Part shown: positions 13,776-48,197 of the stretch, in pieces | How the letters are laid out: the number at the start of each line of letters is the position of its first letter | Numbering within the stretch: the first letter of the stretch is position 1 | Source of the DNA: Actinomycetota bacterium | Lineage (GTDB): Bacteria; Actinomycetota; Aquicultoria; Aquicultorales; JAMCWL01 | Assembly (NCBI GenBank): GCA_023481285.1 | Contig: JAMCWL010000001.1 | Coordinates: forward strand, 1,539-65,538 | Direction of reading: 5' to 3' | Length of the DNA stretch: 64,000 nt | Program-made: the position numbers and the translations under genes | The notes under the pieces: model-generated | Database searches by the model: none | What the model was told of the DNA's origin: nothing | Seen by the model: the letters and a program-made list of their open reading frames with translations, nothing else

Positions 13776-13840
13776 GTCTTCTCTACTTGGTCCAGCGCAT
13801 TATATTGATACTGACCAGATAGGACGGAGAGGGCATTTAT

Positions 13841-18685: not shown

Positions 18686-18707
18686 GCGCCGTCCTAGGCT
18701 GCGCAGA

Positions 18708-18834
18708 GTATTAGAGCATTAGACATTAGAACATTAGAACTTATGAGGGTCTAGAGAGCTAAAAGACTTCCAGTCGGGCACCGGTGGCTCTAATGCGAAT
18801 CTGATGCTCTAATGTTCCAATGATCTAATGTTCC
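18708..18834. repeat. Intergenic element: CATTAGAA-type 8-mer arm (18708..18740), core (..GAGCTAAAAGACTTCCAGTCGGG..), inverted TTCTAATG-type arm (18786..18834)
   Basis: Arms are reverse complements at unit level. The core resembles AGCTAAAACCC..CCAGTTAA cores at 36862.. and 49343... Confidence 0.75.
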
Positions 18835-18859
18835 AGTAGGGTCCGCTCCGAACGGACTT

Positions 18860-18981
18860 CTGGTCTCTTAGTTTCATAGTCCCATAGTTTCTTAGTACCT
18901 TGGAAAAATGTCTTTCGTGCACCTTAAACCTGGGTACACCGATCGATGATTCACCAAGAAACCAAGAAACCAAGAAACCAG
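18860..18981. repeat. Intergenic element with TAGTTTCT-type left arm, about 50-nt core B (AAAAATGTCTTTCGTGCACCTTAAACCTGGGTACACCGATCGATGATTCA) and CAAGAAAC x3 right arm
   Basis: A near-identical element occurs in reverse orientation at 41948..42077. Confidence 0.85.
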
Positions 18982-20152: not shown

Positions 20153-20187
20153 TTAAGCGGTGCCTGTTAAGCGGTGCCTGGTACCGC
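20153..20187. repeat. REP-like motif: 14-nt unit TTAAGCGGTGCCTG x2, closing into the imperfect palindrome GCGGTGCCTGGTACCGC
   Basis: Read directly. Related to the RayT-flanking CGGTACCTGGTACCG. Confidence 0.7.
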
Positions 20188-25771: not shown

Positions 25772-25849
25772 TCTTGTCTTAGACGGCACTCATCGAAAAT
25801 CGAAGCTAGAAATTCGAACTCCGAGGACCTACTTGCGAACCAAGCCCCA

Positions 25850-25877
25850 ACTGATAACCGATAACTGATAACTGACA
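25850..25877. repeat. 7-mer tandem array ACTGATA/ACCGATA x4
   Basis: Read directly. Confidence 0.7.
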
Positions 25878-26128
25878 TCCGAGAACTGAGGGGAAACGAA
25901 GAGGAGCTTTCCAGTTTCGCAAAGCTATAAAGGCCCATGTTAAGAGAGTGCCAAGTTTAGTCCCTGCGGTATTGGGTAGCTGTATCAAGGTTACCGAATG
26001 GGGTTTAAAAGATGTCCTTATTCAGCCGTACGGCCGCATTCTCGATAATGCAGGCTTGAGGTCCTGTGAAATAGTGAGGGATCGTACATAGGCTGCGGTA
26101 ACCCTGCAAACTGAAAGGAGGAATATCG

Positions 26129-27655
26129 ATGATATGCCATATAAAGAGGGGTATTGTAGCTGCCATTTTGGCGCTGGTGCTTGTCTTCAGCGCTGTCGTC
26201 CCTACACTGGCGTCAAGCCACCGTGAGGCACCGCAGATAGCCAACAACCCGGTCGCCGACAATACAGACCTCTACGTCTTTCGGAGCCCAGATCGGCCTG
26301 ACTCTGTGAGCATAATCGCCAACTATTTCCCATTCGAAAATCCGGCGAACGGCCCTTTGTTCTATAAGTTCGCCGACAATGTCCGCTACACGATCACCGT
26401 CTTCAACAACAAAGGCGATACCATAGTCTACGAGTTCAAATTTACCACGAAGATAAGGGACGACGGTACCTTTCGATACAACAAAGATAATGGGCGCATA
26501 GACTCTCTAACCGCGAAGGCGTTCAACATCCGGCAGACCTACACCGTCACCCGGACCAGGAAAGGCTCGAGCACCACATTGGGAACCGATCTCCCGACCC
26601 CTCCGGTCAACATCGGGCCTAAATCCACGCCCAACTATGAGTCGTTGGCAAGCCAGGCGATATCCGGTCTGGACGATAACATCAAGGCCTTTGCGGGCCA
26701 GCGGGACGACCCCTACTTTGCCAACGATGGGGCCTTTTACGATCTGCTCAACACGCCTATTCCGCCCGGGAGCAAGGGGCCGGGCACAGACGCCTATGCC
26801 GGTTTCAATGTCCAAACGATCGCTTTGCAAGTGCCTATTACACAGCTCGTAGAGTCTCCAAACGGCATCATTCCGAGTAACCCATCCGATCCAAACGCTG
26901 TGATAGGTGTTTTTGCAAGCGCTGAGTTGCAAAGCGGCACGATACCCTCCAGTTCCGGTAAGGACTCGGCTAAGAATGGCAAAGTTAGCGGAAGCTGGTT
27001 ATCGAGCCTGTTAAAGCCCATCTTCGGAAGACCGCGCGGTACTACAACTACCACTACTACGACTACGACGACAACCCCGGGCGGTGCGAGTTTTACGCAG
27101 GTCTCTCGCGTGGGCCAACCGCTCGTCAATGCGTTGATCCTTCCGCTCAAGAATAAGGATCGTTGGAACCAGAGCAATCCACGGGACGACAGCCAGTTCA
27201 ACAATTCTTATCGAAACCCATTGCCGGCCGACTATCTCAAAACGTTTATAGGCATTACGCCGCCTTCTATGCCCCGCACCGATCTTACCAAGATCCTACT
27301 TGAAGGCTTCTCGCTAAACCAGGTGGGCGTTAACTTCTCGAACCAGGGTGGCGGTCCTAAGCAGGCCGACCTGATTAGGTTGAATGTTGCGGTTCCTCCA
27401 AAGAAGCCGACGGATCCAGGCTTCAATCGACTGGGCCTCTTCCGCGGCGATCTCGCGGGCTTTCCGAACGGGCGGCGGCTGGAGGATGACGTCATGGACA
27501 TCATGATGCAGATATTCGCAGGAGCAACTCCTTTCTCCTCCGACCTTAACGTGCCGCCCAACAGCACGCTCAGCGACGGCGTCGATGGGAACGACGTGCC
27601 CTTCCTAAGCAGTTTTCCGTATGTTGGAACGCCGCGCCCTGCCTTCGGAGGGTAA
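26129..27655 (+). CDS. Secreted DUF4331-family protein, paralog A (contains a Thr12 run)
   Basis: Signal peptide then SSHREAPQIANNPVADNTDLYVF, the hallmark N-terminus recalled for DUF4331. AGGAGG 8 nt upstream of the ATG. Confidence 0.85.
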   Translation: MICHIKRGIVAAILALVLVFSAVVPTLASSHREAPQIANNPVADNTDLYVFRSPDRPDSVSIIANYFPFENPANGPLFYKFADNVRYTITVFNNKGDTIVYEFKFTTKIRDDGTFRYNKDNGRIDSLTAKAFNIRQTYTVTRTRKGSSTTLGTDLPTPPVNIGPKSTPNYESLASQAISGLDDNIKAFAGQRDDPYFANDGAFYDLLNTPIPPGSKGPGTDAYAGFNVQTIALQVPITQLVESPNGIIPSNPSDPNAVIGVFASAELQSGTIPSSSGKDSAKNGKVSGSWLSSLLKPIFGRPRGTTTTTTTTTTTTPGGASFTQVSRVGQPLVNALILPLKNKDRWNQSNPRDDSQFNNSYRNPLPADYLKTFIGITPPSMPRTDLTKILLEGFSLNQVGVNFSNQGGGPKQADLIRLNVAVPPKKPTDPGFNRLGLFRGDLAGFPNGRRLEDDVMDIMMQIFAGATPFSSDLNVPPNSTLSDGVDGNDVPFLSSFPYVGTPRPAFGG

Positions 27656-27986
27656 TTCCTGAGATTCGGTCCGCCGAGATCCTTGTGGATGTGAGCTAAA
27701 AAGAGCGGTCGCCGGGAAAACCGACCGCTCTCTCACTAAAGAGCGGTAAGGATATTACCAGACCCCGGATAAGACAACCCGTACGAAGACCCCTGAATCC
27801 GGAGAGACGTGTAGCGTGTTTATTTACCGTACCAGTGGGTAGCTGCATGACGTTGCGCGTCGGCATTAAAGGCGTCGGCATTGAAAACAAGTTGGAGCTC
27901 GAAGTGCAAATTTGGCCACTTGTTTATTGATGCAAGCGCCATCCGACTCAAAGACTGTTTTGCAAGTATATTCGCGAGGGAGTGAG

Positions 27987-29414
27987 ATGCACGTGAGGAT
28001 GATGAGGAAAAGTGCAAGGAGGGGGATCGTGGCCGCGCTGATAGCGTCAAGCCTAATTGTCGGCGGCGTCGCTCCCGTTTGGGCGTCAAGCCACCGCGAA
28101 GCGCCACGCGTGGCCGAGGACCCCGCCGCCGACAATACCGACCTTTATGTCTTTCGCAGTCCCGACAACCCGGATATGGTGAGTATTATCGCCAACTTTG
28201 TTCCGTTCGAGAATCCCGCCAACGGTCCTCTCTTCTACAAATTCAGCGATGACGCCCTCTATCAGATCACCGTCTTCAACAACAAAGGCGATACCATAGT
28301 CTACGAGTTCAAATTTACCACGAAGATAAGGGACGACCACACATTTCGCTACAACAAGGACAATGGGCGCATAGACTCTCTAACCGCTAAGGCGTTCAAC
28401 AACCGGCAACTCTACACCGTCACCCGGCTTAAAAACGGCCAGGACAGCGTGTTGGGAACCGATCTCCCGACCCCTCCGGTCAACATCGGGCCTAAATCCA
28501 CGCCCAACTATGAGTCGTTGGCAAGCCAGGCGATATCCGGTCTGGACGATAACATCAAGGCCTTTGCGGGCCAGCGGGACGACCCCTACTTTGCCAACGA
28601 TGGGGCCTTTTACGATCTGCTCAACACGCCTATTCCGCCCGGGAGCAAGGGGCCGGGCACAGACGCCTATGCCGGTTTCAATGTCCAAACGATCGCCATC
28701 CAGGTTCCCATCACACAGTTGGTGCAATCACAAAACGGCGTAATTCCGACGAATCCGTCTGATCCGAACTCGGTCATCGGTGTTTTTGCAAGTGCCAGCC
28801 GGCCGCGGACGCGAGAGCTCAAGCCCGGCAACGGCGCTACGAACTCGGGTGACAATATTCAGATCTCAAGAGTTGGCCAACCGCTCGTCAATGCGTTGAT
28901 CATTCCTCTCAAGGATAAAGATCGTTGGAACCAGAGCAACGCGCTGGATGACGGCCAGTTCAACATCTTCTACCGCAACCCGCTGCCGGCCGATTATGTC
29001 AAAACGTTTCTTGGTGTGGATACGCCTTCCATGCCCCGGAACGACCTGACCAAAATCTTGCTCGAAGGTTTCTCGCTTAACCAGGTCGGGATTAACTTCT
29101 CAAACCGAGGGCCCGGTCCTAAGCAGGCCGACCTGATTAGGTTGAATGTTGCGGTTCCTCCAAAGAAGCCGACGGATCCAGGCTTCAATCGACTGGGCCT
29201 CTTCCGCGGCGATCTCGCGGGCTTTCCGAACGGGCGGCGGCCTCAGGACGACGTCATGGACATCATGATGCAGATATTCGCAGGAGCAACTCCTTTCTCC
29301 TCCGACCTTAACGTGCCGCCCAACAGCATGCTCAGCGACGGCGTCGATGGGAATGATCTGCCTTTCCTGGACACCTTCCCGTTTCTCGGAACGCCGCACC
29401 CGGGAGCCTCATAA
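27987..29414 (+). CDS. Secreted DUF4331-family protein, paralog B
   Basis: Start moved to ATG 27987 (MHVRMMRKSARRG.. signal peptide, GAGGGAG upstream). Collinear with paralog A. Confidence 0.85.
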   Translation: MHVRMMRKSARRGIVAALIASSLIVGGVAPVWASSHREAPRVAEDPAADNTDLYVFRSPDNPDMVSIIANFVPFENPANGPLFYKFSDDALYQITVFNNKGDTIVYEFKFTTKIRDDHTFRYNKDNGRIDSLTAKAFNNRQLYTVTRLKNGQDSVLGTDLPTPPVNIGPKSTPNYESLASQAISGLDDNIKAFAGQRDDPYFANDGAFYDLLNTPIPPGSKGPGTDAYAGFNVQTIAIQVPITQLVQSQNGVIPTNPSDPNSVIGVFASASRPRTRELKPGNGATNSGDNIQISRVGQPLVNALIIPLKDKDRWNQSNALDDGQFNIFYRNPLPADYVKTFLGVDTPSMPRNDLTKILLEGFSLNQVGINFSNRGPGPKQADLIRLNVAVPPKKPTDPGFNRLGLFRGDLAGFPNGRRPQDDVMDIMMQIFAGATPFSSDLNVPPNSMLSDGVDGNDLPFLDTFPFLGTPHPGAS

Positions 29415-29437
29415 CGGAACCAAAACGGAACCAAAAC
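29413..29437. repeat. Perfect tandem duplication, 11 nt x2 (+3): AACGGAACCAA, beginning inside the paralog B stop codon
   Basis: 29413..29423 equals 29424..29434. Confidence 0.8.
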
Positions 29438-29476
29438 CTCGCTCATCTTGGGCTTTCAGGTTAAAATCGACTAATT

Positions 29477-30292
29477 ATGAGAGTATTCATATTTACGAGC
29501 GGCGCGCCCGGCGAGGATTCGGCAAAGACCGGACCCTTTTGGAAGGAGTTCGACGATCGCTACGCCGATAAGTTCATCCGACACCTTACCGACAATCCGG
29601 ATGTCTGCACGGGCTGCGGTAAGGCATGCAACCACTGCCGGGCCGGTTATAAACTCGACTACGCCGACCGGATAGCGGGAACGCACGTTCATCCGGACAA
29701 GCTTCTTGCTTTTGTGGACGATCCTTATAAATATCTGCCGAAGGTTGTTCGTTCGCACGATGTAACGCTGGCCATCAATATCCACCAGGACTTACTTCTG
29801 GAGATCCCCGAGCTGGCTGCCCGCGCCGGCTCAAAGGCCTTGATCGTGCCGGTCGAGGATCCCGATTGGCTTGATCGCTGGCTCAGAGAGGAGCTGGCCG
29901 ATATCTGCAAAGAAAAGGGTCTGGAATTCGCCGCACCGAAGCCATTCTGCTCGCTCGACGAAGGAGAAGGCAAGATTATCGACGAGTTCATAGAGGAGTT
30001 CAGGATGGGTAAGCCTAAGCTTGAGCTTAAGATAAAGGATGGTATCGTGAGGTCGGCCAGGGTGTTGAGGAGCGCTCCTTGCGGGGATACTTACTTCGTC
30101 GCTCACAACATCGTCGGTGTTCCGGTGGGCGAGGAGCTTATGCATAGAGCGGCGAAGTACTGGCACAGTTATCCCTGTATAGCGTCGATGAAAATGGACC
30201 CGGAATTCCAGGACACCATTCTCCACCGGGCCGGCCACATACTTTATGAGGTCGTTGACCGGGCGGTGCGTGCCGCTGGCAAAGGTTCTTAG
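29477..30292 (+). CDS. Cys-rich protein, possibly DUF166/PF02593-like; function unknown
   Basis: 271 aa; CTGCGKACNHC cluster, APCGDTYF, HSYPCIAS. Family assignment is from memory and weak. Confidence 0.7.
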   Translation: MRVFIFTSGAPGEDSAKTGPFWKEFDDRYADKFIRHLTDNPDVCTGCGKACNHCRAGYKLDYADRIAGTHVHPDKLLAFVDDPYKYLPKVVRSHDVTLAINIHQDLLLEIPELAARAGSKALIVPVEDPDWLDRWLREELADICKEKGLEFAAPKPFCSLDEGEGKIIDEFIEEFRMGKPKLELKIKDGIVRSARVLRSAPCGDTYFVAHNIVGVPVGEELMHRAAKYWHSYPCIASMKMDPEFQDTILHRAGHILYEVVDRAVRAAGKGS

Positions 30293-30393
30293 CCCCTCGA
30301 TTGAGGAGTCTGAAAGAATCTTTGCCAGCCGCACGCTAGCATTAGAGCGTCGGAGCGTTCGAACATTCTGATCCGATGAAATCGTACGTTGAA

Positions 30394-30633
30394 TTAACGG
30401 CCGTCAGCGCGTTCCTTTCGGATCAAAACGATGGCGAGGGCTGCCAACGCGGCGATCATAGCGAGCAGTAGAAATTTGAACAGGGCGGCCATCCCGGCCA
30501 GCAGAACCACGGCCAGCGCCACCGGAACGGTCCCCAGAATAAGCCTTTTGTCTCGCACTACCCGCATGGCCAGGGTGGCGCCGAAGAGAAGCGCGATGAC
30601 GATGACCGGTAGCAGAAGAGCCTTTACTATCAT
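30394..30633 (-). CDS. Small membrane protein (79 aa, 3 TM), unknown function
   Basis: Internal ATG 30633 preceded by GAGGAG. The longer track ORF (to 31011) overlaps the opposite-strand gene and is rejected. Confidence 0.5.
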   Translation of the reverse strand: MIVKALLLPVIVIALLFGATLAMRVVRDKRLILGTVPVALAVVLLAGMAALFKFLLLAMIAALAALAIVLIRKERADGR

Positions 30634-30789
30634 CCCATCTCCTCTTTTCTGATGAGAGAATAGCACAGATTCTGGGAAAAGACCCACTATCATCGATATG
30701 ATATGCTTGGGGGGCAATCGTACGACTCTTAAGGCAATTTGTGCTCGGGTGACGGTTGAATCGAAGAGGTCATAGACCGACCGGACCTC

Positions 30790-30827
30790 CCGACAGGGGT
30801 AATATAGACCGACAGGGGTAATATAGA
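30790..30827. repeat. Perfect tandem duplication, 19 nt x2 (CCGACAGGGGTAATATAGA), 29 nt upstream of the MetE-like gene
   Basis: 30790..30808 equals 30809..30827. Confidence 0.9.
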
Positions 30828-30855
30828 GGTTGATCGACTGGCATATGGAGGATGG

Positions 30856-31923
30856 ATGGCTTTTGAAGCAAAATGTTTGCCGACCGCTATAGGCAGTCTC
30901 CCTCACACGGGCGTCGACCACGCGACAAGGGTAATCTTTAAGAACTTTCTGGAGCTGCCGTTCTGGCCACAGATGCCGAACGCTTCGTTCCGGGAGAACA
31001 TGTACGTCCAATTCATCGAGGGACTGCCCGGCGTGGTCGTTGATGAAGAAAATGAGAAAGTCTACTTCGACACCTCTCAGGATATCGCATCCGCGCTTGA
31101 AAAGCTGTACGAGGCGTATCTTGTCGGTGATCTGGAGCGATTTGCCTTGAACAAGGGGAGCGCCAGAGGATTATATGCCTTCCTTGATGTGCTTGAGACC
31201 GGATCGACTCCTGAGATTCAAGCGGTGAAGGGCCAAATCACCGGACCGATAAGCCTGGGGCTCGCCGTCACGGATGAGAACCGCCGGCCGAGCCTCTACA
31301 ACGACGTCATAAGGGACGCTACCATCAAGTTCCTCTCGATGAACATCAAGTGGCAGGAGAGCGTTCTGAGGGCCGCCAGGCCTGAGGCGCAGACGCTGAT
31401 ATTCATCGACGAGCCGTACTTGGTCTCTTACGGCTCGGCGTATATCAGTCTTTCCCGGGACGACGCGATAGGATACCTCGATGAGTTGATCTCCTCAGCC
31501 GAAAGTCCGGTTGGGATCCATTGCTGCGGAAATACCGACTGGAGCATTCTGACGGATACAAAAGTGGATATCATAAGCTTCGACTCTTACGATTATGCTC
31601 AAAGCCTCGCTCTCTACGCGGACCAGATCGAAGAATTCCTTGATCGCGGCGGGATCCTGGCCTGGGGTGCGGTGCCGTCGGGACTGCCAACGCCCGATCA
31701 GGTTGAGAACGAAACCGTGGACGGCCTCGTTCGGAAGCTCGAAGATTCGATGGAGCTTCTGGTTGAGAAAAGGATCGATAAGGAAATCCTCGTTCACCAG
31801 GCCCTCATTACGCCAAGTTGCGGAACGGCGGCGATGACTCAGGAGAACGCCGAGCTAGCATTTGCTTACACAAGAGCCGTTTCAGATAGCATGCGGGAAA
31901 GGTATTTCAAAATTAGCGATTAG
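30856..31923 (+). CDS. Cobalamin-independent methionine synthase (MetE) catalytic-domain family protein
   Basis: 355 aa; TAIGSLPH, KGQITGPIS, IDEPYL, Zn-ligand-like IHCCGN and ITPSCG. Confidence 0.65.
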   Translation: MAFEAKCLPTAIGSLPHTGVDHATRVIFKNFLELPFWPQMPNASFRENMYVQFIEGLPGVVVDEENEKVYFDTSQDIASALEKLYEAYLVGDLERFALNKGSARGLYAFLDVLETGSTPEIQAVKGQITGPISLGLAVTDENRRPSLYNDVIRDATIKFLSMNIKWQESVLRAARPEAQTLIFIDEPYLVSYGSAYISLSRDDAIGYLDELISSAESPVGIHCCGNTDWSILTDTKVDIISFDSYDYAQSLALYADQIEEFLDRGGILAWGAVPSGLPTPDQVENETVDGLVRKLEDSMELLVEKRIDKEILVHQALITPSCGTAAMTQENAELAFAYTRAVSDSMRERYFKISD

Positions 31924-31988
31924 CCGTTGGCAATGAGCAATGAGCGCAGGGCCTTCATTTAGGGAGGCCTTTTTTCGGACCTGATAAA

Positions 31989-32177
31989 TCAAGGCCCCAT
32001 AAGCTTGCCGATTACTGACGCAAGGGCGCTAACAATCAGGATAAGCCCGAAGATGGCCGCTAAGCAGATCGTCGTTATCCCGAGCACCAGGTAGAGCCTT
32101 TCTTTATCTTCGAAGCCCCTGCCCGTCCCAAAAAAATTAACAATTAGATTAAGGGGATTTTGCTTTACTTTCCCCAC
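31989..32177 (-). CDS. Small membrane protein, unknown function
   Basis: 62 aa with one C-terminal TM helix. No homology recognised. Confidence 0.35.
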   Translation of the reverse strand: MGKVKQNPLNLIVNFFGTGRGFEDKERLYLVLGITTICLAAIFGLILIVSALASVIGKLMGP

Positions 32178-32398
32178 GATGGCGCTCCTTCCAGAGTCCA
32201 GCGTCTGCTTTTTTAAGCGTATTGGTTGGGCGGCGGGCAGTCAAGCCGAGTGCGGGCGACAGCCGAGTGCGGGCGAAGGCTCAGGTTCGCCGGTCCACGT
32301 TTGTCGATTTCGGCATCGTCGATGAGATCAGCCGGGAGAACGTGGCCGTTTTTCTAAAGTGGCCCGGATTGGGAAATAGAAGACGAGCGGGAGAGCGT

Positions 32399-32698
32399 AT
32401 GAAAAGAGGCGGCGGCAAGGAAGTTGAGATAAGCGTCGATTTAAGCGCCATCGAGGCGGTCTACTCCAATGCCGTCCACATCGTGCACAGCCCCTTTGAT
32501 TTTGTCTTCAATTTTGTGCAGGTGAGCCCACCAAAGGGCAAACTTGTCGCCAAAGTCATCCTCAGTCCTCAGCACGCCAAGTCGTTCGTGGAAGCCCTCA
32601 AGGAGAACATCGCCAAATACGAAGCCCAGTACGGCCTGATCAACATCTCCAAGGAGATGAAGGAGGAGCGTCCCTTCGGCTTCGTCAAAGAGGGCTAA
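32399..32698 (+). CDS. DUF3467-family protein
   Basis: 99 aa from ATG 32399 (GGGAGAG upstream). YSNAVHIVHSPFDFVFNF motif. The longer track ORF start is rejected. Confidence 0.6.
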   Translation: MKRGGGKEVEISVDLSAIEAVYSNAVHIVHSPFDFVFNFVQVSPPKGKLVAKVILSPQHAKSFVEALKENIAKYEAQYGLINISKEMKEERPFGFVKEG

Positions 32699-32833
32699 AG
32701 AAGGACCGGGTCGTGTATAAACCGGTGCTTTAATAGACCGCCGACCGCGGACACCGCCATTAATCGACTGACGACCGCCGACCGCCGATACATATTGTGG
32801 TTAACCGCATATACCTGCCTCGTCGCTACCGCT

Positions 32834-33030
32834 CTTGTTTCTTAGTTTCTTAGTTTCTTGGAACCTCCGGGTGACTATTGGAGGCGCTATAAACGACCGC
32901 CGTCGGCCGTCCGCCGTCCGCCGCTATAAAGCTTGGATATATGAGGCGCTATTCGCGTTGGATGAGGTTGCCAAGAAACCATGAAACCAAGAAACCAGGA
33001 AACCAAGAAACCAGGAAACCCGGACGGCGA
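32834..33030. repeat. Core-A composite element: GTTTCTTA/G 8-mer left arm, about 110-nt core with three GCGCTAT/CCGCTAT motifs and a CCGNCCG run, AAGAAACC-type right arm, GC-rich outer motif
   Basis: Core almost identical to 52171..52272 and similar to 47986..48075. Additional CCGACCG heptamers at 32738..32790 and their complements at 33160..33195. Confidence 0.85.
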
Positions 33031-33153
33031 ACGTTATAACGACGGCCTCTCCTTAAAACCTAGCGCTTGCTCGAACGCATACGCCGCATTCAAAATAATC
33101 CCCTCGCCGAATGTCGGGCCGATGATCTGCAAGCCCACCGGCTGCCCGTACAT
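33031..33153 (-). pseudogene. Duplicated fragment of the gatA 3' end (last about 38 codons plus stop)
   Basis: 33032..33142 is the exact reverse complement of 41829..41939 (111/111 by eye), with similarity continuing to about 33149. Sits between the ligase stop and the core-A element. Confidence 0.85.
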
Positions 33154-33204
33154 AGCGGCGGTCTGTGATCGTCGGTCGGTGGTCGGGCGGTTCACGAACC
33201 GCCC

Positions 33205-34959
33205 CTACGCCGCAACTTTTCTGAGCCTTGACTCGTACATTTCAATTATTTCTTCTTCCGTCGTCGCGTCTTCGGGGGCTTTGTCCTCGCGGTACCTGCC
33301 GGTGAACCTGGGAAAGCGGATGGCGAGGCCGCTCCCTTCACGGAAACGGTTGTATCCGCAGGTGTGGATGGGGCTAAGAGTGATCTCGGCGCCGATTATC
33401 TCGAGGACGAGAGAGGGTTCGAACCAAACGTCAGGACGTTCCTTGGCGTCCACCCTCGGACTTACATGTTCGAGAACGTAAGGGCTCAACCGGCCCGGCA
33501 ATTCGGCCAGGTCTTTATCGGTAAGCCCGGCCCCCAGCTTGGTCACCGACTTAAAGGTGTCTGTTTTATCATCGTAGCAAGCCATCAGGAGCGAGCCGTA
33601 AACCCCCGCCCGCCTCCCCCGGCCATAGTAGCCGCCGACCACGACCAGGTCCGCTGTATCGGTCATCTCGCTCCTGTACTCGCGCTTGTACTTGATCCAG
33701 AGCCACCCTCTGGCGCCCGCCCGGTAGATGGATTCACTCCCCGTTGATTTGGCGACGACTCCCTCGCAGCCTTCCTCAACGGCCTTCTCAAAGAAGCTTT
33801 CGAGCTCGTCGGTGCCCCTTACGATCTTGTTCTGCGCCAAGTTGACGGCGTCTCCGATGCGGAGCGAGCGCGCCAACGCTTCCCTTCGCTCGGGATAGGG
33901 CTCGCCGGTGTAATCGCGACCCTCGGCGTAGAGGCAGTCAAAAAAGAAGACGGAGGCCGGCAGCTCCTTGGCCGCCTCCGCTACGCCGTACTTCCGCCGC
34001 CTGCGCATCAGCTCCTGAAACGGGCGCATGTCTCCCGTTGCGGGGTTCATCGCAACTATTTCGGCTTCAAGAATTGCGGCCGTCGCCGCTATCGAATTCC
34101 TCGCGAGCGCCACCACGTCTGGAAACTGGCCTGTGATGTTCTCCAGGCGGCGAGAGAAGAGCATTATTCGCTTGCCGTTCTTATGCACCTGAACCCGTTC
34201 GCCGTCGTACTTGTACTCGGCTACAAACTCCGCGCCCAGCTTCTCCGCCGCTTCTTCCGGCGCGTGGACCCGCTCGGCCAACATGGGCCTGATGGGCTTT
34301 CCCAGCTCTATGTGAAAATCTCTAATCTTTGAAACCCCTTTGGTTGCCAGGGCGGAGGCAACCTCTCCCAGGTCCGAGGTTATGTTATACGCCCTCTCGA
34401 TAAGCGGGCGCGCTTCGGGACCCTCACCGTACGTAAGCGCCAAGGCGTCGAGCATCGTCATGTCGGCGACGCCCAAACGTAGCTTGCCGGTCACTATGCG
34501 CACTATATATTTGGCCTCGGTAGGCGTGGCGTTTGAGAGCAATGAGGCCAGAAGCTTAACCTTCTTTTCGGCGCTGCCCGGTCCGGCGGTGTGCGCCACC
34601 TCGTCGAGAACCTTGTAGACGCGGTCGACGGTCAATGGCTTTTTCCTCTCCGGTGCCGCTCGCTCAAGCTCAAGACTGGCGGTCAGGCCGAGGTCCCCCG
34701 TCTTGCGAAGGTCTCTGTTGATCTCTTCGTCGGTGAGCCCGGTCGCGATCGAGACCGATTTAACGGCCATCTTCTCCGCCATGCCGATTTCTATGCCGGC
34801 GAAGTCCGGGTAGAGCTTGCCCTGGGTAAGGTAGACAATCTTTGGCAGGTCCCTGGCGGGCGTGGACTTGACAAGATCAACGAGGTACTTGGTCATCTCA
34901 ATTCGCTTGCTGGTCTTTTCGATCCTCTGGTAAGCGTCGGCCAGGATGCTGAAGTCCAC
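33205..34959 (-). CDS. ATP-dependent DNA ligase (three-domain Lig1/archaeal-type)
   Basis: 584 aa; adenylation motif I EYKYDGERVQ, DBD plus NTase plus OB order. GGAGGA upstream of a GTG start. Confidence 0.9.
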   Translation of the reverse strand: MDFSILADAYQRIEKTSKRIEMTKYLVDLVKSTPARDLPKIVYLTQGKLYPDFAGIEIGMAEKMAVKSVSIATGLTDEEINRDLRKTGDLGLTASLELERAAPERKKPLTVDRVYKVLDEVAHTAGPGSAEKKVKLLASLLSNATPTEAKYIVRIVTGKLRLGVADMTMLDALALTYGEGPEARPLIERAYNITSDLGEVASALATKGVSKIRDFHIELGKPIRPMLAERVHAPEEAAEKLGAEFVAEYKYDGERVQVHKNGKRIMLFSRRLENITGQFPDVVALARNSIAATAAILEAEIVAMNPATGDMRPFQELMRRRRKYGVAEAAKELPASVFFFDCLYAEGRDYTGEPYPERREALARSLRIGDAVNLAQNKIVRGTDELESFFEKAVEEGCEGVVAKSTGSESIYRAGARGWLWIKYKREYRSEMTDTADLVVVGGYYGRGRRAGVYGSLLMACYDDKTDTFKSVTKLGAGLTDKDLAELPGRLSPYVLEHVSPRVDAKERPDVWFEPSLVLEIIGAEITLSPIHTCGYNRFREGSGLAIRFPRFTGRYREDKAPEDATTEEEIIEMYESRLRKVAA

Positions 34960-35151
34960 GCATTCCTCCTTGCTGCTACGCTCTTATACCCATTCAGGCG
35001 GTATTAGCAGGTGGCAAGGGTAAGATCTGGATTCGGTGACCTTGACGAAGAGCGGTATACGGCTTCAAGGTGACAACCGACGCTTTTAGTCTTGACGCTC
35101 GGTCTCTTTTGTTATTCATTAAAACTAGAGATTTCCTAACTGAGAGAGAAA

Positions 35152-36138
35152 ATGCATACCTCAAAGAGGCTGGCGATAATCGCATTGGCCTGGCTTTCCG
35201 CCTTTGCCGTCACCGATTTCCGTGCCGCTTCGAAGGAAGGACCCTACATGCCTAATCGCAGGGAAGAAAGACCTTTCCTTCGCCACCGGCTCGGAGAGTC
35301 GGTAACCGTGGAAACAAAGGCCGGCGCTGCAAAATTGGTACCAATAAATAGTATAGGGGCGGCGGGGGGAGCGGCACCCGGCCAGGCATGGCTACCACCA
35401 ACCACAGGAATTGAGGCGTACCGCGAACGTTTTGAGACGCCCGAGCGTCGCGTCGCCTCGCGGGTGGTTAAGCCGCCTCCTCCTCCACCACCTCCGCCTC
35501 CACCGCCGCCGCAGCCGTTACCCTTTGCACCGGTGCCGGTCGAGAAGATTACGAGCGGCGCTCCTGGAAAGAAGCGCGCGGCACTCACTTTTGACGTCGA
35601 GAAAGACGCCGGCGCCGTCTCGCAAATCCTTGCTGCACTGAAGGGAGCGAATGTTAAGGCCACATTCTTTGTCACCGGCTCGTGGGGTGCGGCATATCCA
35701 GAGCTTTTAAAGCAAATAGCCGCCGAAGGACACGAAATAGCGAACCACAGCTATAACCACCCAATGTTCACGCGCCTTCCAGACGAGGGGGTCTTCTTCG
35801 AGCTAACGGCGACCGAGTCACAGATATATGCGGTAACTCAGCGCCCGCCGGCAAGGTTTTTCAGGCCACCGTATGGAAATCACGACGACAGGATTCTCAA
35901 CCTCGCCGCCTCTAAAGGGTTCAAGACGGTTGTTTGGAACAACGATCCCTCAGATTGGAAGCCCTGGCAGACTTCGGAGAACGTCTTCGCGCTCGTTACA
36001 ATGTACGTGGCCGACGGTGACATCATCTTGCTCCATTCAAGCAGCCAGGCGACGGGGGGAGCGCTTCCGGGCATTCTCGAAAGCCTTAAGTCCATGGGCA
36101 TCCGCCAGGTTACCGTCTCCGAGCTTCTGGTCCCTTAA
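35152..36138 (+). CDS. Secreted polysaccharide deacetylase (NodB homology) with a Pro14 linker
   Basis: Signal peptide, PPPPPPPPPPPPPP, then LTFDVEKD..FFVTG..GHEIANHSYNHP..RPPYG. Confidence 0.85.
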   Translation: MHTSKRLAIIALAWLSAFAVTDFRAASKEGPYMPNRREERPFLRHRLGESVTVETKAGAAKLVPINSIGAAGGAAPGQAWLPPTTGIEAYRERFETPERRVASRVVKPPPPPPPPPPPPPQPLPFAPVPVEKITSGAPGKKRAALTFDVEKDAGAVSQILAALKGANVKATFFVTGSWGAAYPELLKQIAAEGHEIANHSYNHPMFTRLPDEGVFFELTATESQIYAVTQRPPARFFRPPYGNHDDRILNLAASKGFKTVVWNNDPSDWKPWQTSENVFALVTMYVADGDIILLHSSSQATGGALPGILESLKSMGIRQVTVSELLVP

Positions 36139-36152
36139 TCCCTTGCCAATTG

Positions 36153-36815
36153 CTAGAATGTGAATGCGCTCGGGCAGACGGCATTCACCATGCAGATAGA
36201 GCACTTTGGTTTGCGAGCCACGCAGATTTCTCGGCCGAACTCGATTAGCGCAAGGTGAGCGGCCAGCCTCATCTCCGGCGGCACGGCCGACTCGAGTGCG
36301 GCCCTGACCTCCTCATAACGAGCTTCTTTTCCAACCGCGTGCCAGCGTTCGGCTATTCGAAAGATATGGACGTCCACCGGCAGAACGGCTTTTCTGGCGA
36401 CGAAGGATAGGACGACATCGGCCGTTTTTGGACCGACCCCGGGGAGAGCCATCAACCGGACGCGCGCCTCTTGCTCGGGCAGTTCAAGGACGGCCGTCAG
36501 ATCGCCCCCATAAAGCTCGAGGACCGAGAGGGCTATCGCTTTGATCTTCGGCGCCTTCGAGCGGTAAAGGCCAGCGGGTTTGATGAGCTCGGCTATCGCA
36601 TCCTCATCAGCTCTGGCGAGCGCCGTCGGGTTGATCCCCAACCCTTTTTTAAGATGAAGAAAGGCCCTCCTGGTTCCCCGGCGCTCCGTCTTCTGGGAGA
36701 GAACCGTCGAGATGAGAACCTCGAAGGGCGTCATCCCTTCCGACCAGAGATGGGGCTCGAACTCGCTTACGACGACCTCAACCATATCGCGAACTTCACC
36801 GGGCGCTTTTATCAT
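36153..36815 (-). CDS. nth: Endonuclease III (HhH-GPD DNA glycosylase with 4Fe-4S)
   Basis: LPGVGPKTAD HhH motif and C-terminal C-x6-C-x2-C-x5-C (CVARKPKCSICMVNAVC). Confidence 0.88.
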   Translation of the reverse strand: MIKAPGEVRDMVEVVVSEFEPHLWSEGMTPFEVLISTVLSQKTERRGTRRAFLHLKKGLGINPTALARADEDAIAELIKPAGLYRSKAPKIKAIALSVLELYGGDLTAVLELPEQEARVRLMALPGVGPKTADVVLSFVARKAVLPVDVHIFRIAERWHAVGKEARYEEVRAALESAVPPEMRLAAHLALIEFGREICVARKPKCSICMVNAVCPSAFTF

Positions 36816-36840
36816 GGGAAGAATTATATACGACTACTTT

Positions 36841-38996
<2,156 letters not shown>

Positions 38997-39060
38997 TTGA
39001 GGAACAGATAGCGGACGACCGGGATGGCGACCTCCACGTTCCGAATCCGTGCCGGCCGGC

Positions 39061-39094
39061 CCATGATTCAGCGAGCACGCTCGCTGAATCATGG
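39061..39094. repeat. 34-nt perfect palindrome CCATGATTCAGCGAGC-AC-GCTCGCTGAATCATGG
   Basis: Read directly. Lies between ligA and a diverged copy of the ligA 3' end. Confidence 0.85.
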
Positions 39095-39169
39095 AGTTGG
39101 GCATAAAGGTACTGACCGAGCGAGTTCTTCCGCCTGGCTCGTATAAGCTAAGTCCCTTGGAGCTTGCAG

Positions 39170-39985
39170 ATGGAACATAATTCTAGTCCTGACCCGGAGC
39201 CCCCCAGGGAGCCGGCGCCGCCCGGTGAATCGGCCTGGGAGAAGGCAGAGCGCGCGGAAGAGGAGGAGAAATACGGCCCTGGTGGTGTGCGCCGGGTTCC
39301 CTGGGGAATAGGCGACGCGATAATTGCACTCGTCATAGCCTTCATCGTTCTCATAATAGTCTCCATCCTCTTCGGCGTCAGCTCGCAGGCTCGCGTAGTG
39401 ACGCGCTTCGCGCCGGTCATAGGCTCAGTAGTCGGCTACGCCATCTTTGTCGTGGTCGTCTGGATGATTGCCATCCGAATTCGCGGCGGAACGCCGAGCA
39501 ACCTCGGCTTCAACAAGTTCTCAGTGCCCTCCGCCATCTTCCAGGCGGTAATCTGGTGGATAATCACGAGGGTCTTGACCGCCCTTTACTTTGTAACCGC
39601 GTCGCGTCTTGGGGTGAGGCTGCCGGTACAACAGGCCGAGCGGATCGTCCGCCTCTTCGGAAGGGGATTCCTCGGACTCATTCTGGCCTTGATCGTCGCC
39701 GTCATTATTGCGCCCTTAGTCGAAGAGCTTCTTTTCAGGGGCTTCGTCTATTCAGCGTTTCGCCAGTCGGTCGGGGTGGGATGGGCGATACTCATAAACG
39801 GCCTCCTCTTCGCTCTCGTCCACGCGGATCCCTTTCTATTCGTTCCCCTGGCCATCATCGGCTTCGCTCTCGCCTGGCTCTACGAGAGGAGCAACTCGCT
39901 CGGCCCGCCGATCTTTCTGCACGCCCTCAATAACCTCATTTCGATTGTCGCCCTGTACGTTGCTGCCGGAGGAATCAGCGGGTGA
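39170..39985 (+). CDS. CPBP family intramembrane glutamic endopeptidase (CAAX protease-like)
   Basis: EELLFRG, FALVH and HALNN motifs in a polytopic membrane protein. Confidence 0.8.
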   Translation: MEHNSSPDPEPPREPAPPGESAWEKAERAEEEEKYGPGGVRRVPWGIGDAIIALVIAFIVLIIVSILFGVSSQARVVTRFAPVIGSVVGYAIFVVVVWMIAIRIRGGTPSNLGFNKFSVPSAIFQAVIWWIITRVLTALYFVTASRLGVRLPVQQAERIVRLFGRGFLGLILALIVAVIIAPLVEELLFRGFVYSAFRQSVGVGWAILINGLLFALVHADPFLFVPLAIIGFALAWLYERSNSLGPPIFLHALNNLISIVALYVAAGGISG

Positions 39986-40179
39986 AGGCGCATCCCGCGC
40001 CACTGCCATGTCCTTTTCCGGCGCTCTACCCGCTCTTTTGTGAGTCGGTCCTTTTCTGTATACTCATTGGTGTTGTATTGGCGGTTGCCGGGAAACTCCC
40101 CGGCGTCTTTGTTTAAACCACCTGGGGCCGCTGTGGGTAATGTAAGTTCAATATTCAGTTCGCAAGATGAGGTTTTTCT

Positions 40180-40482
40180 ATGGCCATCAGCATAAAAGAC
40201 GTCGAGCACATCGCCTGGCTGGCGCGCCTCGCACTCACTCACGAGGAGAAGGAGAAGTTCGCGGGCCAGCTCTCGAACATACTGGAGCACGCCGGGAAGA
40301 TATCCGAGCTGAACCTGAAAAATGTTGCTCCTACTTCGCACGCCGTGCCGGTCAGCAACGTCTTTCGGGATGACGTTTCCGGGCCGTGTCTCGAGCAAGA
40401 TGAAGCTCTGGCCAACGCGCCGAAGCGCGAAGACGGCGGGTTCGTCGTGCCGAAGATCGTGGGAGAGCCGGCGGCGATGTAA
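40180..40482 (+). CDS. gatC: Asp/Glu-tRNA amidotransferase subunit C
   Basis: 100 aa; VEHIAWLARLALTHEEKEKF..L..IL pattern. Followed by gatA 3 nt later. Confidence 0.9.
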   Translation: MAISIKDVEHIAWLARLALTHEEKEKFAGQLSNILEHAGKISELNLKNVAPTSHAVPVSNVFRDDVSGPCLEQDEALANAPKREDGGFVVPKIVGEPAAM

Positions 40483-40485
40483 TTT

Positions 40486-41937
40486 ATGACTCTATACAAT
40501 CAAACCATTGCCGAACTTCATAAGAAGCTGGTCGCTCGCGAGGTCTCCTCGGAAGAGATAACGCGCGACGTTCTCGAACGCGTAAAAGATGTCGAGCAAG
40601 AGCTAAAAGCCTACCTTACGCTAACTGAGGAAGCGGCTTTGGCGGCAGCGCGCACAGTTGACGCAAAGATTGCAGCGGGAGAGAAGATAGGGCCGCTGGC
40701 CGGTATTCCCGTCGCCGTCAAAGATGTCATGTCGACGAAGGGCGTCAGGACGACCTGCGCTTCGAAGATACTCGAAAACTACGTCCCGGTCTATACCGCG
40801 ACGGCGGTGAAAAAGCTCCTCGGTGACGGCGCCGTCATGATCGGTAAGACCAACATGGATGAGTTTGCCATGGGCTCGTCAACCGAGAATTCCGGCTTCA
40901 ATCCGACGATGAACCCCTGGGATATTGAAAGGGTGCCCGGCGGCTCTTCGGGAGGCTCTGCCGCTGCTGTGGCCGCGGGGGAGGCGATCTACGCACTTGG
41001 ATCGGATACCGGAGGGTCGATCCGCCAGCCCGCGGCGCTTTGCGGCGTCGTCGGGATGAAGCCCACCTATGGCCTGGTAAGCCGGTACGGTCTTGTTGCC
41101 TTCGCTTCCTCTTTGGACCAGATCGGGCCGTTTACAAAGGATGTGACGGACTGCGCGATCGTTTTGAAGGCGCTCGTCGGCCATGACCCCGCCGACTCTA
41201 CATCCCTCGAGTATGAGGCCGAGGAGTATGTCGAGGCCCTGCAGAGAGATGTTAAAGGCATGAGGTTCGGCGTTCCGAAAGAGTTTATGGAGGAAGGCGT
41301 CGAGCCAGGTGTCAAGCAGCGTTTCGAAGAGGCCATCGAACTCTTCGCCAAGCTCGGGGTCGAAGTCGACGAGACGACGCTGCCCCACGTCGATTACGCC
41401 CTGAGCGCTTACTATATCATCGCGCCAGCGGAGGCCTCGTCGAACCTCGCCCGCTTTGACGGCGTTCGCTACGGCCTCAGGGTCGAAGGCGAGGATATGA
41501 TCGACACCTATATGAAGACGCGGGCCGCCGGCTTCGGCGATGAGGTGAAGCGGCGCATTATGCTCGGAACGTATGCGCTCTCCGCGGGCTACTACGAGGC
41601 CTACTATGGCCAGGCTCAAAAGGTCAGAACCCTGGTCGCTCAGGACTTCGAGGAGGCCTTCAAAAAGTTCGACGGGATAATCTCGCCGACCTCGCCGACG
41701 GTCGCCTTCAAGATCGGAGAGAAGGTGGCCGACCCGCTGGCGATGTACCTGTCGGACATCTTCACGATCCCCGTGAACCTGGGAGGATTTCCGGGCATTT
41801 CGGTACCGTGCGGGCTGTCGGACGGGCTGCCGGTGGGCTTGCAGATCATCGGCCCGACATTCGGCGAGGGGATTATTTTGAATGCGGCGTATGCGTTCGA
41901 GCAAGCGCTAGGTTTTAAGGAGAGGCCGTCGTTATAA
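40486..41937 (+). CDS. gatA: Asp/Glu-tRNA amidotransferase subunit A
   Basis: Amidase signature [12 protein letters not shown], 483 aa. Confidence 0.93.
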
Positions 41938-42132
41938 CGACCGCTGGCTTGGTTTCCTGGTTTCTTGGTGGATCATCGAGCGGTGTACCAGGTTTAAGGT
42001 GCACGTAAGACATTCTGCCAAGGTTCTAAGAAACTAAGAAACTAAGAAACTAAGAAACTATGAAACTAGGAAACAAGAGCGTAAGCGACAAGGCAGGTAT
42101 ATGTGATCTATACCGTCGGCGGTCGGCGGTCG
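41938..42132. repeat. Core-B composite element (reverse orientation) inside the gatA-gatB intergenic region, with GGTTTCYT left arm, AAGAAACT x6 right arm and GGCGGTC outer heptamers
   Basis: The reverse complement of 41948..42077 aligns with 18860..18981. Confidence 0.85.
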
Positions 42133-42148
42133 GAAATTTGAGGTAACC

Positions 42149-43600
42149 ATGGAATACGAAGCAGTCATAGGTCTTGAAATACATGTAGAACTCTTGACCG
42201 AAAGCAAGATGTTCTGCGACTCGACGACACGGTTTGGAGAGGAGCCGAACACCCAGGTTTGCCCGGTCTGCCTGGGTATGCCCGGAACCCTTCCCGTCAT
42301 CAATAAGAAGGCGATCGAGCAGACGGTAAAGACGGGGCTGGCTCTCAACTGCGACATCGCTCTCTTCAGCCAGTTTCACCGGAAGAACTACTTCTATCCA
42401 GACATGCCCAAAAACTACCAGATCTCACAGTACGACCTGCCACTGGCAAGCGGGGGCTACGTCGAAGTCGAGATGGAGGAGGAAGGCTACACCACCACCG
42501 TCGGCATCACTCGCGTTCACCTGGAGGAGGACACCGGCAAGCTCGTCCACGTCGGGGGCGCCGGCCGGATCGCCGGGGCCGAGTATTCGCTCGTCGACTT
42601 TAACCGGGCGGGCGTCCCGCTGATGGAGATCGTCACCGAGCCGGACATGCGCATTCCGGTCGAGGCGAAGGCCTTCGCTCAGAAGCTCCGGGCGATCATC
42701 CAATCCCTCGGCGTCTCGGACGTCTCGATGGAGAAGGGCTCGATGAGACTGGATGTCAACTGCTCGGTCAGGCCGAAGGGCGTGGAAGAGTTCGGCGTAA
42801 AGACGGAAATAAAAAACCTGAACTCCTTCCGCTCGCTCGAACGGGGCCTGGCCTACGAAATAAAGCGCCAGATCGAGGCGGTGGAAGCCGGCGAAGAAAT
42901 CGTCCAGGAGACGAGGCACTGGGATGAGACGACCGGGCGGACGTCAACCCTGAGAACCAAAGAGTACGCACACGACTACCGGTACTTCCCGGACCCGGAC
43001 CTCGTGCCGATGGAGCTCGATCCCGCCTGGATCGAGGAGATTACGTCCACCTTGCCGGAGCTCCCCGATGAGAGGAGGAGACGATTCATGGAGGAGTACG
43101 GGCTTCCCAGCCATGACGCCACGCTTCTCACCGCAACCAAGGCGAGCGCGGACTTCTATGAGGAGGCGGTCTCTCTGGGGGCGAACGCGAAGAATGTCTC
43201 CAACTGGATGATCGTCGAGCTTGCCAGCTATTTGAACGCCGAAAATCTCGAGATAGACGAGTGCGCCGTCACCCCGAGGCACATCGCGGAGCTCGTTAAG
43301 ATGATCGACGCGGGAACGATTTCGGGAAAGATCGCCAAGGATATCTTCGGGGAGATGTTCGAGACGGGCAAGCTCCCGAGCATCATCGTCGAGGAGAGGG
43401 GTCTTATCCAGATAAGCGACGAGTCGGAGATCGCCGCAATCGTCGAAGCTGTGATCGAAGAGAATCCAAAGTCGGTAGAGGATTATCGTGGGGGGAAACA
43501 GCAAGCGCTCGGATTCCTGGTTGGGCAGGTGATGCGCCTCACGAAGGGCCGTGCCAACCCGGCGCTCGTGAATAAGCTTCTCAAAGAGAAGCTGTCCTAG
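42149..43600 (+). CDS. gatB: Asp/Glu-tRNA amidotransferase subunit B
   Basis: [15 protein letters not shown] start, CPVCLGMPG, 483 aa. Confidence 0.93.
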
Positions 43601-47231: not shown

Positions 47232-47395
47232 CGTCCGCCGCCTAGTTTCCTAGTTTCCTGGTTTCTTGGTTTCTTGGCAACCACATCCAACGCGAATAGC
47301 GTCTCCAACAAGCACCCGGAGATTCCAAGAAACTAAGAAACTAGTAAACTAAGAAACTAAGAAACTAAGAAACTAAGAAACCAGAACGGCGGTCG
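47232..47395. repeat. Short core-A element (reverse orientation) between large- and small-subunit genes: CGTCCGCC, TAGTTTCC/TGGTTTCT arm, 49-nt core, AAGAAACT x7 arm, GGCGGTCG
   Basis: The reverse complement of the core (..TTGGAGACGCTATTCGCGTTGGATGTGGTTGCC) equals the long core A with the segment between its two GAGGCGCTAT motifs missing. Confidence 0.85.
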
Positions 47396-47914: not shown

Positions 47915-47920
47915 GATTGA

Positions 47921-48192: not shown

Positions 48193-48197
48193 TTTAG

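Follow-up and report, generated by a model that had tools for sequence, protein, structure and literature searches.

Duplicated end of gatA

The window analysed here, a stretch of 64,000 nucleotides from contig JAMCWL010000001.1 of an Actinomycetota metagenome-assembled genome (MAG), carries the gene gatA in the cluster gatC-gatA-E3-gatB, where E3 is one of six copies (E1 to E6) of a repeat family, and a full-length gene for an ATP-dependent DNA ligase (584 aa). At 53 nt past the TAG stop codon of the ligase gene lies a copy of the 3' end of gatA, hereafter gatA', which is inverted with respect to its source and 8.7 kb distant from it. The copy abuts element E2, and its source abuts E3.

In an ungapped comparison, positions 33032-33142 are the exact reverse complement of 41829-41939, which bears out the inverted copy reported in the preliminary description of this DNA; the run of 111 nt is the longest identical one and holds the last 35 codons of gatA, the stop codon TAA and the two bases CG. 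A chance origin of this match is excluded. A repeat finder, which joined the copy with the adjoining repeat arm, returned a 148-nt inverted pair (33002-33149 and 41822-41969; 95% complementary). The exact run ends at a single mismatch at 33143 (CAG in the copy and CTG in gatA, in the sense orientation), past which eight further bases (GCCCGT and AC) match, so that the similarity reaches approximately 33151 and amounts to about 119/120 identity over 33032-33151. The copy is very recent, as first described, but the divergence of zero then reported has to be amended by this one mismatch. Once the CGTT that is also the terminus of the repeat family is discounted, the part derived from gatA measures 107-116 nt.

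The source gene is intact, with a product of 483 aa (NCBI protein MCL5290940.1, from an Actinomycetota MAG in which MCL5290934.1 is also recorded) that matches the TIGR00132 equivalog with 645.7 bits (cutoff 481) and Pfam Amidase over residues 24-464. Its C-terminus and that of GatA from a relative, L083, can be aligned codon by codon (PSL-stop against PKL-stop), which identifies gatA as the donor and 33032-33151 as the derived fragment. The copy spans 37 of the 483 codons and, being truncated, cannot encode GatA; it is a gene fragment, or small segmental duplication, derived from gatA. In a self-BLAST of the whole window gatA' was the sole gene-derived duplicate adjoining an element, the other long pairs being two pairs of tandem paralogues; the further 3'-end fragments at repeat arms that had been envisaged were not found in the 64 kb. 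At the source, a perfect palindrome of 14 nt (GTCGTTA/TAACGAC), with the stop codon at its centre, is made up of the final codons of gatA and the first bases of E3 (41925-41945).

Repeat family E1 to E6

The six elements in the window are 120-280 bp in size and are composed of GC-rich heptamer ends, inverted arms of tandem octamers (AAGAAACY) and an interchangeable core, A or B, the repeat units being 7-8 bp long. Read in order, an element has on its outside a GC-rich motif (heptamer type CGNCCGCC), next to it a C-arm built of GGTTTCYT octamers in tandem, then the core, a T-arm of tandem CTAAGAAA octamers and, on the other outside, heptamers of GGCGGTC. The arms are complementary to each other and comprise 2.5-13.4 octamer units; the inverted octamer arrays and the outer CGNCCGCC/GGCGGNCG motifs constitute terminal inverted repeats. 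Across the window the octamer pattern was matched 43 times (0.31 expected) and the heptamer pattern 15 times (0.47 expected), and RNA fold prediction gave z-scores of -5.1 and -4.1 against shuffled controls. Divergence among the copies is 9-17% (self-BLAST identities: E2/E6 91%, E1/E3 88%, E2/E5 83%). The cores at the two loci differ, as stated in the preliminary description, with core A (109 nt) at the copy and core B (approximately 48 nt) at gatA. Four of six element ends, taken in one orientation, finish with ...GGCG[G/A][A/T]CGTT, and these include E4-left and E5-right, which are unrelated to gatA.

Elements occur inside essential operons; one separates gatA from gatB, and others flank an aconitase-small-subunit-like gene on either side. 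E3 and E4 each start immediately at a stop codon, that of the gene upstream, whose TAA overlaps the element end (T/AACG, the slash marking the boundary). No consistent direct repeat indicative of a target-site duplication was found at the six pairs of element ends. The window encodes no DDE transposase, nor was any transposase assignable to the family found in it, and the Pfam scans detected no reverse transcriptase or site-specific recombinase encoded there. These scans covered 40 open reading frames (ORFs) of the window, including all those of at least 240 aa but two (7055-8077 and 30856-31923), and the latter two gave no reverse-transcriptase match in NCBIfam.

Anatomy of the junctions

The gatA sequence meets the element at the identical nucleotide in both loci, at the termini of E2 and E3. 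It had been proposed that the breakpoint coincides with the repeat arm; the boundary does lie at the element in both loci, but 11 nt further out than the arm, at the very end of the element (...GGCGRWCGTT). The CGTT at 33032-33035, with which the 111-nt identity starts, is the family's own terminus, and since it is also seen at E4-left and E5-right in the absence of gatA, the outer junction appears to carry a microhomology of 4 nt.

The GC-rich motifs of 11 nt that follow at E2 and E3 differ (5/11 positions match), and the next 19 nt of the arm are identical between the two elements and recur in other copies (E5, E6). The earlier observation that a GC-rich motif and then the same arm follow the fragment at both places holds; the likeness of the arms is one at the level of the family, outside the duplication. 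Furthermore, the terminal motif of E2, CGGACGGCGAACGTT, matches that of E5 at 13/15 positions and is unlike that of E3, AAGCCAGCGGTCGTT. As the 19 arm bases recur in other copies too, E2 has kept an end of its own instead of receiving one from E3. On the inner side of the copy, the mismatch and the bases beyond it can be read either as a substitution that followed the event in a copy of 120 nt or as a microhomology of 6-8 nt.

Heptamer DNA continues on the far side of the copy. The array at 33152-33190 in the spacer before the ligase gene resembles, in local alignment, the heptamer array within core A, and fold prediction pairs its heptamers at 33155-33190 with 32765-32790 on the other side of E2; gatA' would thus interrupt the outer arm of E2.

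A likeness not mentioned in the preliminary description is a 30-nt module on the far sides of E2 and E3, CAAGAGCG..AGCGACRAGGCAGGTATATG (also CAAGAGCG..GGCAGGTATATG), which is identical at 27/30 positions (90%), is present in the window only at these two elements and is followed by GGCGGTC heptamers and GGCGGTCGGCGGTCG. An identity of 90% is the ordinary divergence between elements, and that of gatA' to its source is 99-100%. At 10% divergence, the probability of at most one mismatch in 120 positions is 4.6e-5, and heterogeneity between 1/120 and 3/30 gives p=0.025. With 111 exact positions, or 119/120, set against a family divergence of 9-17%, gatA' appears much younger than the elements; from these sequences the gatA part may have either a younger history or one of homogenisation. 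Two readings follow for E2 and E3: they may be sisters within a single subfamily, or a larger module (gatA tail, element, gatB-upstream sequence) was duplicated and had its interior exchanged later. The module showed no significant similarity to the gatA-gatB spacer of L083, and a native origin upstream of gatB is unsupported by that spacer.

Support from independent assemblies

The possibility of a misassembly had been raised for the junction region, and an independent Logan assembly now backs one of its two junctions. Logan contig L001 (run SRR22746125) equals window positions 33113-40875 with 0 mismatches and starts exactly 30 nt inside the copy, which is the branch point that a true repeat imposes on a k=31 de Bruijn graph. 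From this start it follows that reads of SRR22746125 run from the ligase spacer into inverted gatA sequence; both the inner junction and the duplication itself are real. A second Logan contig, L082 (SRR10267473; on record for three samples), is 100% identical to the window over 29299-32905, and the outer junction falls between the two contigs.

Table 1. Positions of gatA', its source, the surrounding features and the six repeat elements in the window
Feature	Position	Strand	Details
gatA' fragment	33032..33142	-	Exact 111-nt run; first 4 nt (33032-33035, CGTT) also repeat-family terminal consensus
Inner junction zone	33143..33151	-	Mismatch at 33143 and 8 bases in common with gatA 41820-41827
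Source segment	41820..41939	+	3' end of intact gatA; stop 41935-41937 and the two next bases
gatA	40486..41937	+	Amidase, TIGR00132
gatB	42149..43600	+	Pfam search
ATP-dependent DNA ligase gene	33205..34959	-	Domain searches, ORF list
Spacer between gatA' and ligase stop	33152..33204	.	Degenerate GGCGGTC-type heptamer array and GCTAT, then GGGCGGTTC/GAACCGCCC hairpin
Left outer heptamer arrays of E2 region, (GACCGCC)n	32735..32790	.	Predicted partner of 33155-33190
39-codon ORF, MYGQPVGLQ...PSL-stop	33034..33153	-	ATG at 33153
E1	18858-18981		Core B, inverted
E2	32808-33031		Core A; far-side module 32808-32837, T-arm 32833-32861, core A 32862-32970
E2, outer side			C-arm octamers 32971-33020; outer GC-rich terminal motif 33021-33031(-33035)
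E3	41940-42133		Between gatA and gatB; outer motif 41940-41950, C-arm 41951-41969, core B ~41970-42017
E3, far side			T-arm 42018-42078, far-side module 42074-42103, GGCGGTC heptamers 42115-42133
E4	47232-47390		Core A with internal deletion, inverted
E5	47919-48194		Core A, one arm only, 13.4 units
E6	52104-52330		Core A

Relatives and database searches

The closest available relative, L083, has a ligase 78% identical to that of the window and the same gene neighbourhood. It is without E elements and without gatA', and 177 nt of unrelated sequence lie downstream of its ligase gene; the copy is specific to the lineage of the window in this comparison. The gene orders of the two differ (window 33205-36815 against L083 7432-12588): the HhH-GPD gene stands between the deacetylase gene and ligA here and downstream of the ligase gene in L083, which also has ABC1 at the latter place, and genes for an ABC1 kinase and an MFS protein are absent at this place in the window. 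One gene order would be turned into the other by two nested inversions with the gatA'/E2 site in common.

No counterpart of the E family was found in Rfam or in pattern scans of JGI metagenome contigs and IMG/VR; searches of plasmids and phages, which were partial, and the surroundings of gatA in 80 relatives likewise showed none. In these searches, neither a 26-mer of gatA' nor a 20-mer of core A was matched in the JGI metagenome contigs, and two core patterns were without a match in IMG/VR. A partial search of plasmids with E2 returned only low-complexity matches to the arm or the GC array, and a partial search of phages with E3 returned none. The octamer pattern was absent from 81 loci, mostly gatA neighbourhoods, including three Poribacteria MAGs that held the best gatA matches (60-63%). 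Rfam gave no match at the gathering threshold and only chance-level hairpin matches at E<1, and no tRNA or tmRNA attachment site was found.

A translated-element search among predicted proteins yielded nothing but (GAAACCAA)n arrays of no relation to the family, on ENA contigs of low GC content. On two such metagenome contigs (L085, 400-520, and L086, 380-505) the arrays precede a common CCCCTCAACATACCGACTC and are apparently unrelated to the family; the genes called there do not translate to the recorded products under the bacterial code. Plasmid p1 of Nitrosomonas eutropha C91 (NC_008341.1) carries approximately ten tandem GAAACCAT octamers at 1500-1575, directly upstream of parA, and this array is probably a plasmid partition site or operator. 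The near-identity of GAAACCAT to the C-arm octamer suggests, by analogy, that such arrays could be protein-binding iterons.

Origin of the copy

We tentatively favour, from the anatomy of the junctions, an origin of gatA' in one recent repeat-anchored template switch, or templated repair patch, between the sister elements E2 and E3. The class of mechanism first put forward, with ectopic recombination or template switching mediated by the repeats, still explains the copy best. In the favoured model, E2 and E3 would be sister foldback-like elements, inverted and 8.7 kb apart; they share arms and the far-side module, a homology by which they could be aligned. Ectopic recombination has been documented to concentrate at the tandem-repeat terminal inverted repeats of foldback elements (PMC3169594). 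A replication stall or break would have occurred at the hairpin-prone C-arm end of E2, and the free 3' end, the E2 terminus ...GGCGAACGTT, would have paired with the equivalent terminus of E3, with the arms aligning and the common CGTT re-annealing. Starting at E3, synthesis would then have headed outward, into the antisense strand of gatA, over approximately 111-116 nt, after which the new strand would have returned to the gatA'/E2 site (site L) and been joined at the microhomology GCCCGT/AC inside the outer heptamer arm of E2. This model needs the fewest events, and it would account for the sharp boundary, the motif and core retained by E2, the two microhomologies, the interrupted outer arm, the near-zero divergence and the absence of the copy from L083.

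Several points weigh against it. Among the six elements the 30-nt module belongs to E2 and E3 only, which could mean that the whole gatA-E3 module was duplicated. The outer junction (33031/33032) is without independent assembly support, as the Logan assemblies break at 32905, within core A, and at 33113. How the site read before the event, and in which direction the steps ran, is our reconstruction, and the microhomology at both junctions is read from the present sequence. Finally, the 64 kb hold a single event of this kind, from which no general pattern is derivable.

The first of these points is the core of an unlikely alternative, in which an inverted duplication of the whole module (approximately 41820-42133) to site L is older, the interior from motif to core was later replaced by a core-A element, and continuing gene conversion kept the gatA part (120 nt) identical while the shorter 30-nt part drifted. 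In its favour, both flanks of the element are common to the two loci (119/120 in gatA and 27/30 in the module, followed by GGCGGTCGGCGGTCG), and the module is absent from the other four elements and from the rest of the window. Three processes are nevertheless required, namely duplication, precise replacement of outer motif, arm and core, and conversion; moreover, the only sequence that donor and recipient would have in common at the gatA side of the replacement is CGTT, which does not suffice for homologous exchange. At 90% identity the module stays within the ordinary divergence between elements, so that it may be a mere subfamily module, and the heterogeneity between 1/120 and 3/30 is modest at the p-value given above.

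Distinctly unlikely is an origin as the by-product of an inversion, with one breakpoint, staggered or replicative, at the 3' end of gatA and a second at the E2 edge, by which approximately 120 nt were duplicated in inverted orientation on either end of 33152-41819, followed by a later flip back or repeated flipping. The perfect inverted repeats do bracket this 8.7-kb segment exactly, site L is a breakpoint of synteny with L083, and gatA would be full-length in either orientation, since the repeat holds its 3' end and stop codon. A k-mer assembly cannot distinguish the two orientations (L001 lies wholly inside the segment), and owing to the perfect inverted repeat the orientation of the block in a short-read MAG is not securely fixed. 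Against this stand the need for at least two events to reach the present orientation, in which gatCAB is colinear as in L083, the absence of a site-specific recombinase in or beside the segment, and rearrangements relative to L083 that leave gatA uninvolved; the outgroup L087 is too rearranged to polarise the change.

A further extension, to which we give little credence, is that the inverted copies of 111-120 nt serve as recombination handles that make the 8.7-kb block invertible, the repeat family perhaps capturing and reshuffling gene ends. If it were true, gatA would be intact either way and coupled to or uncoupled from gatB. A programmed invertible segment of the Hin, Fim or shufflon type was rejected, there being no recombinase among the genes in 33205-41937 (ligase, deacetylase, nth-like HhH-GPD glycosylase, LigA, Rce1-like protein, GatC and GatA).

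Activity of the element itself, either transposition of an E element from gatA with 116-120 nt of flank (one-ended or read-through) or two target-specific insertions at pre-existing gatA tails, is improbable and ranks just behind the inversion. At both loci the boundary coincides precisely with the terminus of the element; a target preference is hinted at by E3 and E4, which start at an upstream stop codon (T/AACG...), and the inner boundary within gatA falls at CGGACGG, identical to the outer motif of the family. The suggestion in the preliminary description that the element mobilises flanking host sequence has nonetheless lost ground: E2 differs from E3 in terminal motif and core and is hence not a transposed copy of it, no second captured fragment is present in the 64 kb, and no reverse transcriptase or assignable transposase was found nearby, the sole Y1 gene of the window being flanked by unrelated GCGGTACCTGGTACCG palindromes. 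Nor was a target-site duplication found, and the version with target-specific insertions still needs a separate duplication.

An assembly or library artefact, that is, a chimeric inverted join in the MAG contig, is hardly credible; the window comes from a short-read MAG and repeats break the Logan assemblies on both sides, leaving the outer junction unconfirmed, but the Logan sequence of SRR22746125 matches the ligase gene, the spacer and 30 nt of the copy without a single mismatch and stops at the expected k=31 branch, L082 is also identical on the other side, and both boundaries lie at structured positions (element terminus and microhomology).

Neighbouring genes and related arrays

The copy and the ligase gene share one strand and one frame. 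The ligase TAG and 17 sense codons separate the two (33034-33207, reverse strand), and read-through would add 56 residues to the ligase. The shared frame is probably a coincidence, being unremarkable by chance. The 39-codon ORF that had been noted to open at an ATG acquired by the copy is present; no GGAGG-like or other Shine-Dalgarno-like sequence was seen upstream of the ATG, its product was not on record in an exact-protein look-up in the contig index, and it is probably meaningless. The same look-up gave no exact record for gatA, gatB, a long DUF3467 ORF or the small ORFs. Scans of 32.5-33.4 kb detected no promoter-like site and two weak terminator-like sites, which is the chance level. 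On the whole gatA' is probably a functionless, dead gene fragment. Should the DUF3467 gene be read through across E2, a perfect 111-nt antisense RNA to the 3' end of gatA would result.

Core A (32862-32970, 52160-52270 and 47975-48073) contains an internal direct repeat, GGAGGCGCTAT...GAGGCGCTAT, and GCTATAAA flanking a CCGNCCG heptamer array. The core of E4 (47278-47326) is a short form without the interior of approximately 60 nt, as if this had been deleted or inserted between direct repeats. Arrays of the same design with other units, either inverted or single 7-8-mers, are found in the intergenic regions at 16933-17060, 18705-18836, 25849-25889, 36841-36895, 49310-49455 and 57645-57679, the units being TGGTCTCT/TAGCTCA, ATTAGAAC/GTTCTAAT, AACTGAT, AGCTATC, TGAGCCA/GCTCACG and TAGCAAT. 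Two of them (36841-36895 and 49323-49378) have the common core GCTAAAACCCAA..GGA.GCG.CCAGTTAA, and both 16980-17005 and core A contain GAGGCGCTATTCGCG. It seems that modular short-array elements make up an entire system in this genome.

Elsewhere in the window, a gene for a UvrD/REP-type helicase (22752-25652, forward strand) is interrupted by an intein (Pfam Intein_splicing, residues 267-509). The two groups of tandem paralogues encode DUF4331 proteins (26129-29414; 86-87% DNA identity) and family-2 glycosyltransferases (12072-15535; 77-91% DNA identity).

Comparison with known systems

The arrangement at gatA resembles the template and variable repeats of a diversity-generating retroelement (DGR) in that a copy of approximately 110-130 nt of a gene 3' end lies a few kb away and is followed by a GC-rich motif that differs between the two places, in the manner of IMH and IMH*, the motifs of initiation of mutagenic homology. 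This candidate was rejected, as the scans of the window gave no reverse transcriptase, the target would be the housekeeping gene gatA, the orientation is inverted and the one difference (A in the copy, T in gatA) forms no adenine-specific pattern.

Mobilisation as a repetitive extragenic palindromic (REP) sequence or a REPIN by a REP-associated tyrosine transposase (RAYT) was likewise rejected, since the RAYT-like gene of the window is flanked by GCGGTACCTGGTACCG and not by E arms. This Y1 gene (616-1236, reverse strand) scores 52 bits with Pfam Y1_Tnp and 72.6 bits with NF047646 (REP_Tyr_transpos; cutoff 80). Its flanks (573-610 and 1327-1425) carry the palindrome GCGGTACCTGGTACCG, with a perfect 48-nt tandem duplication on one side in addition, and a fourth copy of the palindrome is located at 20171-20187 (region 20153-20187).

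As a class, the E elements are comparable with REP sequences, bacterial interspersed mosaic elements (BIME) and REPINs, with CGTC-tagged REPs (PMC3733652), with miniature inverted-repeat transposable elements such as Correia and ERIC, and with BOX elements; like these they are small, non-coding, hairpin-forming and multi-copy, are modular, and stand within operons directly after stop codons. They match these bacterial repeats in neither sequence nor arm architecture. In the spacing of the arrays there is a further likeness. Ribbon-helix-helix partition and repressor proteins (ParG/parH, the omega heptads) bind iterated arrays of 7-8 bp. Tandem units of this length in direct and inverted orientation are common to both, and a similar (GAAACCAT)n lies upstream of parA on p1; the likeness is in unit and period only, and the E arrays have no partition gene, are chromosomal and lie within operons. 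We know of no bacterial intergenic repeat that combines tandem-octamer arms with swappable cores.

Template switching at inverted repeats or quasipalindromes, events of the type of fork stalling and template switching (FoSTeS) or MMBIR (break-induced replication mediated by microhomology), and homology-facilitated illegitimate recombination in bacteria make up the class of events to which the favoured origin of gatA' would belong. A short, inverted ectopic copy beside a shared repeat, an apparent microhomology of a few bases at the junctions and a near-zero divergence are features in common; the mechanism of gatA' differs in being read from junction anatomy only, and the anchoring repeats are a new family. 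Although gatA' is a small scar, its value lies in being a dated, nucleotide-resolved case, from a lineage of Actinomycetota not yet cultivated, of hairpin-forming intergenic repeats driving illegitimate copying and rearrangement. Events of its kind are already known, and gatA' adds a further one; the repeat family is the more unusual object.

In their design the E elements come closest to the Foldback (FB)-type transposons and to Tm1 of Meloidogyne, which have composite, multi-domain inverted arms with short tandem repeats in variable number; such arms are reported to be hotspots of ectopic recombination and rearrangement (PMC3169594). The length of the E arms likewise varies between ends and between copies, and the centres are heterogeneous. 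The FB-type transposons and Tm1 are eukaryotic, have units of 13-31 bp, attain kilobase size, and are associated with target-site duplications and with transposases of the Mutator-like element (MULE) or P type (PMC3169594), whereas the E elements are bacterial, have units of 7-8 bp, measure 120-280 bp and showed neither a target-site duplication nor a transposase in the window. If they should prove to be mobile or protein-bound, they would represent a bacterial analogue of the eukaryotic foldback elements.

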